From positions 485,018 to 549,017 of the forward strand of contig JBCDDE010000001.1 in NCBI GenBank assembly GCA_039180625.1: a stretch of 64,000 bases of DNA, given 5' to 3'. Both the position numbers and the translations under genes were made by a program. The first letter of the stretch is position 1; the number at the start of each line of letters is the position of its first letter. Shown piece by piece: positions 4,433 through 29,343 of this stretch. The notes under the pieces are model-generated. The model searched no databases, was not told the origin of the DNA, and was given only the letters and a program-made list of their open reading frames with translations. This stretch comes from Pseudomonadota bacterium (GTDB lineage: Bacteria > Pseudomonadota > Alphaproteobacteria > Caulobacterales > Parvularculaceae).

Positions 4433-5745
4433 TCGAGCCTGTTGCTGCAGCAGATTTCGCCGCTCGCCTTAAGGCGCTTCACCCTGGCGACCAATTTGCA
4501 ATTGCTGTTTCCGGCGGACGCGACTCCATGGCGCTGGCCTGTCTGTGTGCTGAATACGCTCAGAGCTTTAGCGGCAAAGTCTCTGCACTGATCGTCGATC
4601 ATGGGTTGCGCCCCGAAGCCGCCGCAGAAGCGGAGCAGGCGCGCGCCTGGTGCGCCGAACTCGGTCTGCGCGCAAGAATTCTGACCTGGGCAGGCGATAA
4701 GCCTCCCTCCGGTGTTCAGGCGGCGGCGCGGCGCGCGCGATACCGCCTCCTTGCGTCAGCGGCGGTTGCGGACGGGTGCGGCGCTCTCTTGACGGCGCAC
4801 AGTGCGGACGATCAGGCCGAAACGTTGACAATGCGCCTTGCGCGCGGCGCCGGACCTGCGGGGCTGACAGGCATGAGATCGGCAACGGCAATCGCGGCCG
4901 GTCCGGGGCCTGCAGTGCGTTTGCTGCGCCCCTTGCTTGATCTTCCACGCGCATCCTTGACATCGACTGTCGTGGCCCGCGGTCAGGCTTATATCGACGA
5001 TCCGTCCAACGATGATGAGCGCTATGAGCGTGTTCGCGCGCGGCGATGGCTTGCCTCATGCGCTTCGTCGTCAGAGTTTTTTTCGCAAAGCGGTCTTTTG
5101 GCAACGTCGTCGCGCATGGTGGCGGCGACAGAACGGCTGCGCGAACAGGAAGCGACTTTATTTGAAGTTCTTGGCGGTGTTTTCACATACTGGGGCGGCG
5201 CATCATTGTCTTTCACAAAGGCGCAACGGGCGCTCACGTCTTCGGCTGCGCCCGGATTATTTGCGCGCCTCATCCATGCCGTCGGCGGCGCTGAGTTCGC
5301 CCCTGAGGAAGGCAAAGCTGCTCGCGCCATTGAAGGCGTTTTTTCCTCAGGCGCGTCATCATTAGGCGGTGTGCTTTTGGCTGTGTCCGGCGATCGTCTA
5401 TGGTTTTTCAGGGAACCGGCTGGTCTTCTTGGTCGAGAAGGCGTCGCGCCAATGAGTTCCGTCGCACTTTCTGTCGATGAGCCGGTTTTATGGGATCAGC
5501 GATTTATTGTGCGCTCTAAGGTTTCCGGCGCTGTGCTGCGGCCACTGGGCGCGGACGGTCTCAAAGCTTTGGGTCCTCAAAGCGGCTTATTTCATGGGCC
5601 TCAGGCGGCTTTAGTCGGGCTTCCGGGGATTTTTTGCCGCAATCGCTTGATTGCAGCGGCAACGTCGCCAAATGTCAGTGCTTCAGCGGTCGACATGAGA
5701 TCACTTATCGCGGAACGGTTTGCCGGTGAAATCGTTAGATTTTAG
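4423..5745 (+). CDS. tilS: tRNA(Ile)-lysidine synthase
   Basis: AVSGGRDS PP-loop, DHGLR, TAHSADDQAET, RPLL, DPSN motifs; conserved ybgF-tilS-ftsH order. Confidence 0.93.
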   Translation: MQLIEPVAAADFAARLKALHPGDQFAIAVSGGRDSMALACLCAEYAQSFSGKVSALIVDHGLRPEAAAEAEQARAWCAELGLRARILTWAGDKPPSGVQAAARRARYRLLASAAVADGCGALLTAHSADDQAETLTMRLARGAGPAGLTGMRSATAIAAGPGPAVRLLRPLLDLPRASLTSTVVARGQAYIDDPSNDDERYERVRARRWLASCASSSEFFSQSGLLATSSRMVAATERLREQEATLFEVLGGVFTYWGGASLSFTKAQRALTSSAAPGLFARLIHAVGGAEFAPEEGKAARAIEGVFSSGASSLGGVLLAVSGDRLWFFREPAGLLGREGVAPMSSVALSVDEPVLWDQRFIVRSKVSGAVLRPLGADGLKALGPQSGLFHGPQAALVGLPGIFCRNRLIAAATSPNVSASAVDMRSLIAERFAGEIVRF

Positions 5746-5851
5746 TAGTTTTCGCGTGAACTTCTTAGGCGCCCATGGCGCTGGGCTTTCTTAACGCTTA
5801 TCTAATATGCATAGCAATTTGGCCGGTTGGCCATAGAAGCGGGAAAAACGA

Positions 5852-7780
5852 ATGAACGGACGCAGTTTGCTGATTTGGGGTCTAGTCGTCGTCGTCTTTT
5901 TGGTGGCGCTGCAGCTTTTTTCATCGCCTTCGAGCCAGCCTGCGTCAGAAGAGCTGACATACACCGAGTTTGTTGATCGCCTCGAAGGCGGGCAGGTCGC
6001 AACTGCGGAAGTGTCCAAAACGCAAGTCACGGGCAAGCTCAGCGACAATACCTCATTCACGACCACCATTACTGAAGATGGGCAGGCGAATATTGCCGAC
6101 CGTCTCAATGCTGCAGGCGTGACGACGACGATCGAAAAAGAAGAGGAGTTGCCGCTCCTGCTGTCGCTTCTCTTTAATATTCTCCCGTTGCTGATTTTCC
6201 TCGCGCTGTTCTTCTTTGTCATGCGTCAGATGCAAGGCGCTGGCGGCAAAGCGATGGGTTTTGGCAAGTCGCGTGCAAAATTGCTGACCGAGCGGCAAGG
6301 GCGTGTCACCTTTGACGATGTCGCGGGCATTGACGAGGCGAAAGAAGAGCTTGAGGAAATTGTTGAATATCTGAAAGATCCAATGAAGTTCCAGCGTCTT
6401 GGCGGTAAAATTCCGAAAGGCGCGCTGCTTGTCGGGCCTCCGGGCACAGGTAAAACCTTGCTGGCCCGCGCCATTGCCGGCGAAGCGAATGTGCCGTTTT
6501 TCACGATTTCCGGTTCTGACTTTGTCGAGATGTTTGTCGGCGTCGGCGCAAGCCGCGTGCGCGATATGTTCGACCAAGCGAAAAAAAATGCGCCGTGCAT
6601 TATATTCATAGACGAGATTGATGCGGTTGGGCGTCACCGTGGCGCAGGCCTTGGCGGCGGCAATGATGAGCGCGAACAAACGCTTAACCAGCTGCTCGTC
6701 GAGATGGACGGTTTTGAAGCCAATGAAGGCATCATCCTGGTCGCGGCAACAAACCGCCCGGACGTTCTTGATCCGGCATTGTTGCGGCCCGGACGTTTTG
6801 ACCGTCAGGTTGTCGTTCCTAATCCGGATGTTATTGGTCGCGAGAAAATTCTTCAGGTGCACATCAAAAAAGTGCCGTTGGCGCCGGATGTGAACGTTCG
6901 CACAGTCGCGCGCGGCACGCCGGGTTTCTCAGGCGCCGACCTCGCTAATCTTGTTAATGAGGCAGCGTTGCTTGCAGCGCGTCGTGGCAAGCGTTTCGTT
7001 ACGGCAAAAGAGTTTGATGACGCCAAAGATAAAGTCCTTATGGGCGCTGAGCGGCGTTCCATGGTCATGACTGAAGAAGAAAAAGAACTGACCGCTTACC
7101 ACGAGGCCGGTCACGCGCTTGTCGGTCTGTCCGTGCCTGGCAATGATCCTGTTCACAAAGCGACAATTATTCCTCGCGGTCGCGCCCTCGGCATGGTGCA
7201 GTATCTGCCTGAGCGCGACAGCTATTCCATGACGCTGCAGCAAATGAAAGCTCGGATCGCCATGGCGATGGGCGGGCGCGTAGCTGAAGAGCTTAAATTC
7301 GGTCAGGAGAAGGTCACTTCCGGCGCCTCATCCGACATTGAGCACGCAACAAAGATTGCGCGCGCCATGGTGACCCAATACGGATTATCGGAAAAACTTG
7401 GCCCGATCGCCTATTCCGAGGACGAGGGCGAGGTCTTCCTTGGTCAGAGCATTGCGAGAACAAAATCGATTTCAACCGATACAGCCAAACTTATCGAAGA
7501 TGAAATCAAGCGTTTTGTGACGGAAGGCTTTGACAAAGCAAAAGAAATTCTGACGCGACGCAATGATGACTGGGAACGCCTTGCAAAAGCGCTTCTCGAA
7601 TATGAAACCCTCACAGGCGAAGAGATTAACGCGCTTCTGAACGGCGGTGAAATTGTCCGCGAAGATCCCAATGACTCAACAGATCATACGCCTCCATCCT
7701 CTGTGCCAAGCGCAGGCTCGCCTGTAGGCGACAAGAAGGATAAAGGCGGCGCTGGCGGTATGGAGCCGGAACCGGCTTAA
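5852..7780 (+). CDS. ftsH: ATP-dependent zinc metalloprotease FtsH
   Basis: Two TM helices, Walker A GPPGTGKT, Walker [14 protein letters not shown] zinc motif. Confidence 0.98.
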
Positions 7781-22112: not shown

Positions 22113-22607
22113 ATGATCTTTACACGACGCACCGTGATGGCGTCCACATTGGCTGGCGGCATTGCTATTGCGGCGACTGGCGCTTTGGCCAGAGCGCCGG
22201 AGATTTATCTTGATGATGGCGGCTTATTCGGACAGGGTTGGTCCCACGCGGTGGGCGGCCATGATGTTGTCGCCTATCACTCCCTTCAATCTGGCGCAGC
22301 CCCTGTCATGGGTTCAGAAGATTTTCGTACGGAGTATAAAGGCGCTTCCTGGATTTTTTCTTCGCAGGAAAACCTAGATGCTTTTGTCGCCGACCCTGAC
22401 CGATACAGACCACGTTACGGCGGGTACTGCGCATGGGCGATGGCGCGCAATAAATTGGCGAAAGGCGATCCTCGCGTTTGGCATATTAGGGACGGCGAAT
22501 TATTCCTGAATGTCAGCCCACGGTTCAAAAAAGAATGGCTCGCCAATGTTGAGCGCGACATAACCCGCGCTGATAAGAATTGGCCCGATATCCTGGATCG
22601 AAACTAA
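22113..22607 (+). CDS. YHS-domain protein
   Basis: Tat-like TRR signal; GHDVVAY, W.FSSQENLDAF..DP.RY.PRYGGYCAWAM. Confidence 0.85.
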   Translation: MIFTRRTVMASTLAGGIAIAATGALARAPEIYLDDGGLFGQGWSHAVGGHDVVAYHSLQSGAAPVMGSEDFRTEYKGASWIFSSQENLDAFVADPDRYRPRYGGYCAWAMARNKLAKGDPRVWHIRDGELFLNVSPRFKKEWLANVERDITRADKNWPDILDRN

Positions 22608-22638
22608 TATTTTAATGTTGCGGAAATGTCGTTTTTTC

Positions 22639-22667
22639 TTGCGTAAATGATGTTTTCGAGTCACCAT
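22639..22667 (+). promoter_or_regulatory. Putative sigma70 promoter for the orphan riboswitch transcript
   Basis: TTGCGT-N17-CACCAT; a start site would fall at about 22672-22674, the 5' end of P1. Confidence 0.35.
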
Positions 22668-22671
22668 TTTA

Positions 22672-22863
22672 ATGTGCCGAGGGGCGTCCCGCCTGTCGCC
22701 AGTTGACGACGGTTCGTGCGACGCGCAACTCATGAATGCGTGCTATCGCAGCTACTTTAGCACAATTTGCGTGAGCAATGCGCGCCAGGGAACAAGGGCG
22801 TAAGGGACTGAGAAGAACCCTTTGAACCTGATCCGGATCATGCCGGCGTTAGGAACGGTGCAT
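22672..22863 (+). ncRNA. TPP riboswitch aptamer with a very long P3 insertion; no downstream gene
   Basis: P1 atgtgccg/cggtgcat; P2 agggg/ccctt; P3 gtccc (22686-90)/gggac (22804-08); UGAGA; ACCCUUUGAACCUGAUCCGGAUCAUGCCGGCGUUAGGAA core. Confidence 0.88.
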
Positions 22864-23012
22864 TGCTAATCTGCGAAGGTTAGCACGGGCCTATGGTCCA
22901 AGCAGAGCCAATTTCCTCGTCGCCGAATTCCAAAGGCTTGAGCAGCGGCGAGGAGACTGGTCACTTGTAGAATTACGTACTGTATCGTTTTAAGTTTTCA
23001 TATTTTTCCGTA

Positions 23013-23519
23013 TCAGAATGGATTTAACGTATATCCATCCTGCTGCAATAAAGCGTGTGCGGTCATTGCGGATAGCGCCATTTCCACTCCTGGCGCTAAG
23101 TCGGCGGTGTCGACGTCATAGTAAGCCGCGCTTTGACCGCAGACAATAATCCGGGTCTGCTGCGCGACAAGCGCTTCAACCAAGCTGAGGTTGGATTCTG
23201 CCTTCGCTGTGACATCCTTCACAGCTTTGCCGTGAATCACGACTGCGAGGTGAATATTTTCAGGATTGACGCCGGCTGCCGCATGCATATTGATAAACCG
23301 CGCTGCGGAAGTAAGCGTGCGATTGGCATCGCCTGAGTCTGCTTGCTGTCTTGTATCAAAACTTACATAGAATTTTGTCTCAGCCGGCACTGGCGTTGCG
23401 CCGTTAATTTCCGCGACTGGACCAAAGTCTTTAAATAAAGGACCGTTTTTAAACGCGTCTTCGCCTGCGATGGTCGCCGGCGCATAAAATAAAACTGCAG
23501 CAATCACCAAAATGCGCAT
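23013..23519 (-). CDS. DsrE/DsrF-like family protein (exported)
   Basis: Signal peptide; IHLAVVIHGKA, IIVCGQS, SAMTAHALLQQDGY; AGGAGA RBS. Confidence 0.82.
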   Translation of the reverse strand: MRILVIAAVLFYAPATIAGEDAFKNGPLFKDFGPVAEINGATPVPAETKFYVSFDTRQQADSGDANRTLTSAARFINMHAAAGVNPENIHLAVVIHGKAVKDVTAKAESNLSLVEALVAQQTRIIVCGQSAAYYDVDTADLAPGVEMALSAMTAHALLQQDGYTLNPF

Positions 23520-23564
23520 GTTGTCTCTCCTTAGTTTGAACGCGATCATAGGCCAACAATTCTA

Positions 23565-24329
23565 GTGAGGCCAAATTTGGGAGCTTCTGATTTGCGGACC
23601 TTAATTGCGTTTTTAATTTCTTTATTGAGCGCCGTAGACGCTAGCGCCGCCTGTGAAAAGCAAGCCCATTCCGGCAACGCGTATGTTGTGTGCCGATATG
23701 ATCCGCAAACAGCGGATGTTCGCTTTTTCCTTAATGACGCGGCCGGCGCTCCTTACCGGCATTTCAATCTCGTCAATAACGCGTTGGCCCGGAATGATGA
23801 AAAGCTGGTCTTCGCCATGAACGCCGGCATGTATCATAAGGATCGCTCGCCGGTGGGATATTACCGCGAAAATGATCGGGATATCGCGGCACTCAACACC
23901 AATGACGGGCCTGGCAATTTTCATCTGAAACCGAATGGCGTCTTTTATGTCGCGCCGGATGGTCGCGCCTTTGTCGAGGAAACAGGGACGTTTCTCAAAA
24001 TCCGGCAATCGCCGCCCAAATATGCAACTCAATCCGGTCCGATGCTCGTTATCGACGATCGCATACACCCGCGATTTTTACCGCAATCTGACTCTTTAAA
24101 GCGCCGGAACGGTGTCGGCGTCACGAAAACGGGCGAGGTTTTTTTCGTTATAACGGATAACCCTGTCCGGTTTTATGATTTTGCCGTATTTTTCCGGGAT
24201 GAGCTGAAAACGCCGAACGCACTCTATCTCGACGGAACCATCTCTCGCCTTTACGCGCCGGAACTCGGTCGCAATGATCCGGGCGCAGCCATGGGGCCGA
24301 TTGTTGGCGTCGTTGCGCACTTAGAGTAG
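23565..24329 (+). CDS. Phosphodiester glycosidase family protein (YigE/DUF2233-like)
   Basis: FAMNAGMYH, GNFHLKPNGVF, ATQSGPMLV, RNGVG, ALYLDGTIS. Confidence 0.85.
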   Translation: MRPNLGASDLRTLIAFLISLLSAVDASAACEKQAHSGNAYVVCRYDPQTADVRFFLNDAAGAPYRHFNLVNNALARNDEKLVFAMNAGMYHKDRSPVGYYRENDRDIAALNTNDGPGNFHLKPNGVFYVAPDGRAFVEETGTFLKIRQSPPKYATQSGPMLVIDDRIHPRFLPQSDSLKRRNGVGVTKTGEVFFVITDNPVRFYDFAVFFRDELKTPNALYLDGTISRLYAPELGRNDPGAAMGPIVGVVAHLE

Positions 24330-26751: not shown

Positions 26752-26753
26752 TT

Positions 26754-26873
26754 GAATTTCCGAGGGGCGCGGGACGCCGTCCGCTGAGATCCGGTAGAGC
26801 GCGAAGTCGCGCCAAAGGCAGCCGGAGCACCCTTTGAACCTGATCGGTTAAGACCGGCGTAGGGACGGAGTTC
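26754..26873 (+). ncRNA. TPP riboswitch (translational) upstream of rid-thiC
   Basis: AGGGG...GCUGAGA...ACCCUUUGAACCUGAUCGGUUAAGACCGGCGUAGGGA; downstream ggacg/cgtcc stem flanks the AAGGAG SD at 26914-26919. Confidence 0.93.
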
Positions 26874-26927
26874 AGTGCAAGCCCGCCTTCCAACGTCGGA
26901 CGAACCGAAGCCAAAGGAGCGTCCGTC

Positions 26928-29343
<2,416 letters not shown>

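Follow-up and report, generated by a model that had tools for sequence, protein, structure and literature searches.

Riboswitches are usually read as a sensor together with the gene behind it, and the thiamine pyrophosphate (TPP) riboswitches of E. coli thiM and thiC (THI element, Rfam family RF00059) are switches of the translational OFF type. The subject of this analysis is a TPP riboswitch-like element, here called RS1, in a stretch of 64,000 nt from a Parvularculaceae genome (assembly GCA_039180625.1, contig JBCDDE010000001.1, positions 485,018-549,017, forward strand; this whole stretch is referred to as the window, and positions are counted within it). RS1 resembles the RF00059 riboswitches in its three-way junction of helices P1 to P5, its CUGAGA and ACCUGAUC..GCG motifs, a platform that sequesters a Shine-Dalgarno (SD) sequence, and its link to thiC. 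It departs from them by a 113-nt domain at the tip of P3, an extra U and an AGGAA near P4, and by the lack of a gene past its gated SD. RS1 is very probably a real and still-selected TPP riboswitch that has been orphaned from the gene it gated. The most interesting question is what a conserved, cargo-less translational riboswitch that faces a convergent gene is selected for.

Several described systems come close to this layout. Tandem TPP riboswitches exist, for example in the Bacillus anthracis tenA leader, and the window likewise has two aptamers of the same orientation at one thiamine locus, a pair that in one relative (G008/L046) lies ~0.5 kb apart with only a start-stop between. The window's own two aptamers are separated by 4 kb and three reversed genes and so, unlike a tandem, cannot act as one leader. 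Riboswitch-controlled antisense RNAs are represented by the Listeria B12 riboswitch with AspocR and by the Clostridium acetobutylicum ubiG S-box antisense RNA. RS1 has in common with these that a riboswitch transcribed from its own (here putative) promoter is aimed at the 3' end of a gene in the opposite orientation, whereas the Listeria and Clostridium cases use terminators and have transcripts, and the window's case is SD-sequestering and would respond to TPP. Riboswitch RNAs that stand alone also have precedents in the S-adenosylmethionine (SAM) riboswitch RNA SreA and in the B12-gated EutX/Rli55.

Two further systems concern what happens beyond a gated SD. In M. tuberculosis ppe2, a B12 riboswitch controls a translated leader open reading frame (ORF), and the downstream gene is reached via termination-reinitiation (PMC11260477). 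A translational OFF switch gating a short upstream ORF is also a common layout in the family of RS1; the differences from ppe2 are the ligand, the bare start-stop that takes the place of the upstream ORF in the window, and a next plus-strand gene that is ~620 nt off behind a reversed gene. In Sinorhizobium meliloti metA, the SD of a SAM-II riboswitch acts on translation 74 nt downstream, the ligand alters RNA stability, and the leader also occurs as a small RNA (PMC9373788). That system shares with RS1 an alphaproteobacterial host, a sequestered SD and events well past the first start codon, but metA lies on the same mRNA and has a validated terminator, while at RS1 no terminator was seen and a convergent gene intervenes.

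The aptamer of RS1 is assembled from two distant parts. Its 5' half, GUGCCGAGGGGCGUCCC (22674-22690), closes P1, P2 and P3 around the insert, and a TPP-like core follows at 22804-22861 with the motifs CUGAGA (22808-22813), ACCUGAUCCGG (22826-22836) and GCG (22846-22848). CUGAGA (the pyrimidine sensor), ACCUGAUC, ACCUGAUCC and GCG (the pyrophosphate sensor) were invariant or nearly so in 21 relatives. Two variants, one extra U after GCG and before UAGG, and AGGAA replacing AGGGA, are both polymorphic in the genus. An initial annotation, made from the sequence alone, had drawn an aptamer with P1 to P5, and the helices lie where it placed them. Covariation was counted on an alignment of 21 genus copies with P1 to P5 and four insert helices written out: 95.7% of positions in 43 pairs were paired, against 28-42% in controls in which the 3' partners were slid by 1-3 columns. 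Ten pairs showed compensatory changes, which were located in P1, P2 (GGGG/ACCC to GGAG/AUCC), P5 (CCGG to CCAG/CUGG) and three insert helices. A protein-coding reading of the element (ORFs at 22672-22803 on the plus strand and 22500-22733 on the minus strand) was ruled out by this RNA-type pattern.

The P3 insert is the feature that sets the element apart. It is built from a GCC/GGC extension, a GUCGN/NCGAC hairpin, an 8-bp helix (GACGCGCA/UGCGCGCC), CUC/GAG, and a variable hairpin, and seven of the ten compensatory pairs fell in the insert helices (helices 4-7 of the alignment). The strands at the insert junction are conserved in sequence beyond pairing needs, and the whole element, far 5' half and insert included, is kept in almost all genomes of the genus. 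At the gathering threshold of RF00059 (54.3 bits) RS1 was missed, and the sole TPP match in the window was the thiC-proximal riboswitch, RS2; these two are the only TPP elements in the genome. All 16 homologous copies examined in relatives scored 37-52 bits, compared to 65-70 bits for the thiC riboswitches of the same genomes. These scores stay below threshold because the model cannot span the 113-nt insert, and the subtype therefore escapes standard annotation; the local alignment that RF00059 offers is misleadingly short, and the long architecture drawn by the initial annotation is the right one. Taken with the covariation, RS1 appears to be a genuine TPP riboswitch of a lineage-specific subtype with a long P3 architecture, and it is predicted to bind TPP.

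The aptamer is flanked by a conserved promoter-like element on one side and an equally recognisable expression platform on the other. The blocks CCGATTTt.CTTGC and tTTTtGaG.CAc.aT stand at fixed spacing in 80 loci, in line with the plausible promoter proposed earlier; a generic sigma-70 scan, whose consensus is of the E. coli type and may overlook promoters of alphaproteobacteria, does not flag it. The predicted transcription start, ~22673-22675, roughly coincides with the first base of P1. The linker behind the aptamer, whose 9-bp hairpin with a GCGA loop had already been pointed out and can be read directly, varies in length and sequence among relatives and is probably a spacer only. In the platform, pairing between the anti-SD strand UUUCCUCGUCGCC (22912-22924) and GGCGAGGAGA hides the SD GAGGAG (22950-22955), again as first described. 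In 29 sequences the 16 pairs of this SD helix were 96.4% paired, with compensatory changes in 7 of the 16, and in the window's own copy one pair differs from that of its clade by a double change from A-U to G-C. A covariance model (R1) built from the SD-helix platform recovered it behind the aptamer in 62 of the 75 loci searched, and a start codon lies 4-12 nt past the SD in most of the family, if not in every member. The anti-SD UUCCU..CGCCG has its complement in the aptamer 3' segment CGGCG..AGGAA, an arrangement typical of TPP translational OFF switches, and the platform is accordingly best described as a putative SD sequestrator of translational OFF design. A terminator scan of the plus strand at 22860-23390 returned no terminator-like site, and the SD helix was rejected as a terminator for the convergent gene, as no U-tract follows it on either strand.

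Comparison with relatives indicates what the switch ordinarily controls. An exact 20-mer of the 5' half, searched in species-representative genomes, occurred once each in 81 species-level stretches, all of them Parvularculaceae where named (Marinicaulis, Hyphococcus, Amphiplicatus). The upstream neighbour was always a thioredoxin-like (Trx-like) gene, with purA ahead of it in every locus long enough to show that position and a YHS gene after it in some species. The usual run downstream, on the plus strand, consists of a secreted protein without assignment (cl2), an M20 hydrolase, a NAGPA-family protein (PF09992) and another protein without assignment (cl4), with reversed genes for DsrE, an amidohydrolase and a GST interspersed, and a second riboswitch, of the canonical type, and thiC mark its end. 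In 9 genus members no stop interrupts the NAGPA frame as far back as the riboswitch SD, and in 6 of these a TTG or ATG 9-10 nt past GAGGAG opens NAGPA itself. In many other relatives the gated start opens a short leader ORF only (about 1-30 codons), and the first long gene follows 100-300 nt beyond. In relatives, the covarying SD helix thus appears to gate either a leader ORF or whichever gene opens the secreted-protein cassette that leads to thiC. This speaks against the earlier suggestion that the locus represents an undescribed system. It had also been said that a gene directly behind the SD in close relatives would mark a simple deletion relic; relatives do carry a gene in that place (a leader ORF, NAGPA or another secreted-protein gene), which agrees with this condition in spirit, yet the conservation described below is not that of simple decay.

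An order-wide survey of 151 genomes places the origin of this arrangement further back. Most of these genomes carry one TPP riboswitch, and NAGPA often lies 2-15 kb ahead of it in the same orientation. In G033, G051 and G052 (L124, L125 and L126), which belong to sister families, a single canonical TPP riboswitch stands directly before NAGPA with thiC downstream. Because of these outgroup layouts, a riboswitch-NAGPA-thiC operon is the likely ancestor, and RS1 would descend from the leader of that operon. The initial annotation had named a TonB-dependent thiamine receptor or an original thiC leader as the lost partner; neither is borne out as stated, and the NAGPA-thiC operon leader takes their place as the likely ancestor. 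A literature search for PF09992, NAGPA or DUF2233 (phosphodiester glycosidase) in connection with thiamine or TPP riboswitches found no paper linking them.

In the window, the gated reading frame is reduced to a start and a stop, and the next plus-strand gene lies ~620 nt away with an SD of its own. The TTG TAG AAT TAC GTA of the window compares with TTG CAG TGC GTA in L074 and TTG TCA AAG TGC GTA in L093, and TTG CAA GGT TGC GTT opens NAGPA in L075 and L082; owing to this comparison, TTG-TAG reads as the remnant of an ancestral gated ORF with a stop at its second codon. A TTG-TAA was found at the equivalent position in two unrelated species (L045 and L046), of which L045 retains genes on the plus strand downstream. 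Leader ORFs therefore form a continuum with the start-stop at one extreme, and a start-stop does not prove that nothing is left to regulate. The earlier description of a cassette with no gene to regulate is true locally, given the lack of a real ORF and the convergent dsrE close behind the TTG-TAG, both of which can be read directly, but the layout is the product of a rearrangement and relatives do gate genes.

The riboswitch faces dsrE in six species, namely the window's, four more of its clade and the distant L108. In a tree of the flanking Trx-like protein, five of the dsrE-facing species and one without dsrE form a single Marinicaulis clade, with L108 placed far from it; L108 lacks NAGPA as well and retains the riboswitch. 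An older-type layout with the riboswitch followed by M20(+), DsrE(-) and NAGPA(+) is present in L051 and partially in L099, L106 and L117. The riboswitch therefore seems to have been orphaned by rearrangement and not built as a gene-less cassette. Two origins are viable: an intrusion of dsrE between riboswitch and NAGPA, which fits the outgroups in which the riboswitch directly precedes NAGPA, or a deletion of gated genes from the M20(+)-DsrE(-)-NAGPA(+) layout, which fits the deeper family members of the L051 type. The relic of a deleted gene that was put forward at the outset is hence one of the two, while this label undersells the locus in view of the purifying selection seen in the clade.

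This selection was assessed as mean pairwise identity per segment within the clade of five marine species whose riboswitch faces dsrE. Identity was 82% for the aptamer and 85% for the SD platform, and it dropped to 33% for the linker and 30% for the spacer past the SD, with 66% over the final 300 nt of dsrE. As a cause of this conservation, gene conversion from the thiC riboswitch was considered and rejected, as insert and platform are specific to RS1 and lacking in the thiC riboswitch. Since aptamer and platform outlast both the spacers and dsrE in identity, with a compensatory change on the window's own branch, continued function can be argued for: aptamer and platform are probably under strong purifying selection without a gated gene, and the switch is probably still used. 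The same selection keeps open the option, raised in the initial annotation, of a TPP-responsive RNA with an independent function.

The features of the locus are collected in Table 1.

Table 1. Positions of RS1, its parts and its neighbours within the window, with the basis of each assignment.
Feature	Position	Strand	Basis
Promoter-like element: -35 TTGCGT (22639-22644), 17-nt spacer, -10 CACCAT (22662-22667)	22639-22667	+	conservation
TPP aptamer P1-P5, apparent lineage-specific subtype	22674-22861	+	covariation, partial RF00059 match, direct reading
P1	22674-22679 with 22856-22861	+	direct reading
P2	22680-22683 with 22818-22821	+	direct reading
P3, enclosing the 113-nt insert	22686-22690 with 22804-22808	+	direct reading
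113-nt structured insert, distal in P3	22691-22803	+	insert-helix covariation
P4	22827-22830 with 22849/22851-22853	+	direct reading
P5	22833-22836 with 22843-22846	+	direct reading
Linker with two hairpins: 9-bp stem with GCGA loop (22864-22885); GGGCC/GGUCC (22887-22899)	22864-22899	+	direct reading, folding
Predicted expression platform, long helix	22907-22963	+	model R1 (65.5 bits), covariation
TTG-TAG, gated start-stop 9 nt past the SD	22965-22970	+	direct reading, relatives
AT-rich spacer between TTG-TAG and the dsrE stop codon	22971-23012	+	no terminator, not conserved
Convergent DsrE/DsrF-family gene (dsrE) with signal peptide	23013-23521	-	Pfam PF02635, 50 bits
NAGPA-family secreted protein (PF09992, phosphodiester glycosidase)	23592-24329	+	Pfam 76.9 bits, synteny
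RS2, second and canonical TPP riboswitch, ahead of the Rid-like ORF and thiC	26753-26882	+	RF00059 59.9 bits, above cut-off; thiC recognised by its ThiC domains
Rid-like ORF, 156 aa, between RS2 and thiC	26928-27398	+	NCBIfam Rid family, E 1.9e-12, below family cut-off

The stop codon of dsrE (23013-23015) lies 42 nt past the TAG. Its likely start is the ATG at 23519-23521 behind AAGGAGA, with an alternative ATG ending at 23549, and a promoter-like TTGGCC-18-TATGAT stands ahead of it on the minus strand (23574-23545). NAGPA has its own SD, GGGAG (23580-23584), before a TTG start at 23592, with an alternative GTG at 23565. In the gap between dsrE and NAGPA the sigma-70 scan found no plus-strand promoter-like site for NAGPA, which with an E. 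coli-type consensus is a weak negative in an alphaproteobacterium. A PDB sequence search with the NAGPA and DsrE-like proteins gave no matches, and NCBIfam holds no family for NAGPA, DsrE, cl2 or cl4.

What RS1 does at present has to be deduced entirely from these data. I favour, at about even chances for the statement as a whole, that RS1 belongs to the long-P3 subtype, descends from the leader of the ancestral cassette, was orphaned, and now has a transcript-level output in cis that is directed into dsrE and possibly NAGPA. In this mechanism the riboswitch would originally have headed a plus-strand series of genes for NAGPA and other secreted proteins that reaches to thiC. Without TPP, the aptamer 3' segment would hold the anti-SD strand and leave the SD open, while bound TPP would hold the aptamer closed and free the anti-SD strand to pair with the SD. 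Once the gated gene had been lost or cut off, as in the window and its clade, the SD would serve TTG-TAG alone, with the convergent dsrE next, and TPP would set the fate of the RNA made from the riboswitch promoter: cut short (as a ribosome-free leader, by Rho or decay) or read through. Read-through RNA would run antisense into dsrE and possibly on to NAGPA, which has no recognisable promoter of its own. A transcript-level output in cis is favoured because there is no open frame and no recognisable terminator or NAGPA promoter, and because the helix is kept where the start codon is lost. The dsrE-facing geometry also recurs in a second, independent lineage (L108). A translated bridge across the antisense dsrE was considered and rejected, given that the three plus-strand frames hold 9, 9 and 14 stops between the SD and the NAGPA start, and none of the four other genomes tested has an open plus-strand frame that spans the dsrE gap.

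A number of observations weigh against this favoured output. The window's element matched RF00059 in a permissive search with 49.9 bits only (22777-22873), through a local pseudo-5' half and with P3 deleted, so that the check proposed with the initial annotation returned a partial match that falls under the 54.3-bit cut-off. The extra U and the G-to-A change lie near the pyrophosphate-sensor strand of the aptamer, and their effect on binding may be questioned. Minimum-free-energy folds kept the SD helix closed in every construct (-115.2 versus -97.5 kcal/mol), with opening costing ~18 kcal/mol. A thermodynamic ON/OFF switch was thus not reproduced by this folding, and any switching must be kinetic, which is possible. 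The gated start codon is not kept within the dsrE-facing layout, being absent in three of the six genomes (L088, L100 and L108), and translation from the SD is therefore not the selected output. Moreover, a read-through RNA would be untranslated for ~600 nt and normally a good Rho substrate, which argues against efficient read-through to NAGPA, and no functional logic ties a periplasmic DsrE-like protein to thiamine.

A wider alternative, which I regard as possible and rather doubtful, is a cargo-less TPP sensor, that is, a non-coding RNA acting antisense into dsrE or in trans, which would have arisen twice through loss of the gated gene, with the secreted proteins of the relatives forming a periplasmic branch of the thiamine regulon. 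If true, this would amount to a TPP-gated antisense or small-RNA regulator and an undescribed branch of that regulon.

The remaining explanations are all unlikely, though each accounts for part of the data. RS1 might still control NAGPA alone as a very long leader, with the dsrE overlap incidental. No other gene is linked to the riboswitch as frequently, or from as early on, as NAGPA, no plus-strand promoter was detected upstream of it (by a scan of E. coli type that can miss alphaproteobacterial promoters, which weakens the point), and the metA case is an alphaproteobacterial precedent for a riboswitch SD acting at a distance (74 nt; PMC9373788). Such a leader would nevertheless have to include ~620 nt of antisense RNA that is not translated, from the platform as far as the start of NAGPA; NAGPA has an SD of its own, and L108 keeps the riboswitch without NAGPA.

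To a similarly low degree, RS1 might be a stand-alone TPP-sensing RNA that ends soon after the platform and acts in trans or as a ligand-dependent decoy. Conservation without a gated ORF, a conserved promoter-like block of its own, the lack of a translated path to the next plus-strand gene and insert junction strands that are conserved beyond pairing needs would all suit such an RNA. However, no terminator or other defined 3' end was seen past the platform, so that a discrete small RNA is not predicted, the SD sequestrator is a cis-acting design, and the identical element serves as an ordinary cis leader in most relatives; no target in trans came to light, no search for one having been made.

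It is just as improbable that RS1 is a non-functional relic whose gene was lost and which has not yet degraded, or which is kept by a constraint unrelated to TPP sensing. The destroyed gated ORF, the start codon missing from half of the genomes with the same layout, the separate SD of NAGPA and the Rfam score below cut-off point in this direction. On the other hand, aptamer and platform are more conserved than dsrE, and far more than the spacers, across five species, their helices keep pairing through compensatory changes, one of them on the window's own branch, and P3 insert and platform could not have been maintained by gene conversion from the thiC riboswitch. Finally, an assembly artefact in which a gene was collapsed out at ~22965-23010, a caveat raised with the initial annotation, can practically be dismissed, as five other species show the riboswitch-facing-dsrE layout in assemblies made independently, of which two are complete chromosomes or long contigs.

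The orphaned state of RS1 and the comparison with relatives have consequences beyond this locus. RS1 would be a clean natural case in which the gated gene is gone and selection on the sensor and the expression platform persists across several species, and it suggests that selection can maintain a translational riboswitch for some output besides the translation of its own ORF. For annotation, the subtype, which is present in 81 species-level genomes, falls below the curated Rfam threshold because of its P3 insert and is hence absent from standard annotations. The comparison also supplies leads in the form of candidate proteins for thiamine salvage or uptake (the secreted NAGPA/PF09992 protein, the M20 hydrolase and a secreted protein without assignment), which seem to be undescribed in this role. 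The association of the NAGPA protein with TPP riboswitches and thiC extends over several families of the order.

With respect to these leads, a periplasmic M20 hydrolase (glutamate-carboxypeptidase-like, below NCBIfam cut-offs) recurs among the first genes behind the riboswitch, and so does the secreted cl2, which has no Pfam or NCBIfam match (L117, L106, L090, L092, L051, L099 and others). YlmB, a known thiamine-salvage deformylase, is an M20-family enzyme too, and M20 and cl2 are for this reason candidates for periplasmic salvage of thiamine or its precursors. Taken together, the secreted NAGPA, M20 and cl2/cl4 proteins look like putative, undescribed members of the thiamine regulon.

Some smaller observations were made along the way. 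A motif G-TTGCGT-T-TG is semi-conserved 17-25 nt past the SD whatever gene follows (window 22971-22985: AATTACGTACTG). Its TTG opens NAGPA in L120, L081 and L113, and elsewhere it opens a mini-ORF of 2-4 codons (MRL*, MRLR*, MR*, MRR*); the motif may be a vestigial signal-peptide start or a functional mini-ORF. The gene upstream of RS1 (22113-22607), for a protein with a Tat-like signal peptide, scored 135.8 bits against the NCBIfam family 'YHS domain-containing (seleno)protein'; it stands between the Trx-like gene and the riboswitch in some relatives only. Elsewhere in the window, a serC leader (RF00517, 15638-15690) scored 57.4 bits, above its cut-off, and is ordinary for an alphaproteobacterium.

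Two relatives deviate from the general picture. In L068 (JBCDBL010000158.1, ~5579-5900 in element orientation), an RS1-type 5' half is combined with a short P3 insert, giving an aptamer of 121 nt in all, which lies ~110 nt before the thiC start without an SD helix or a second riboswitch. The entire cassette that elsewhere separates the two riboswitches seems to have been lost there, possibly by recombination between them. In L074 (JANQJK010000001.1), a 26-nt tandem duplication, gcggtcattgccgagagggccatctc, at ~+430 to +480 from the element shifts the frame of dsrE, which is either a pseudogene or the result of an assembly error in that genome.

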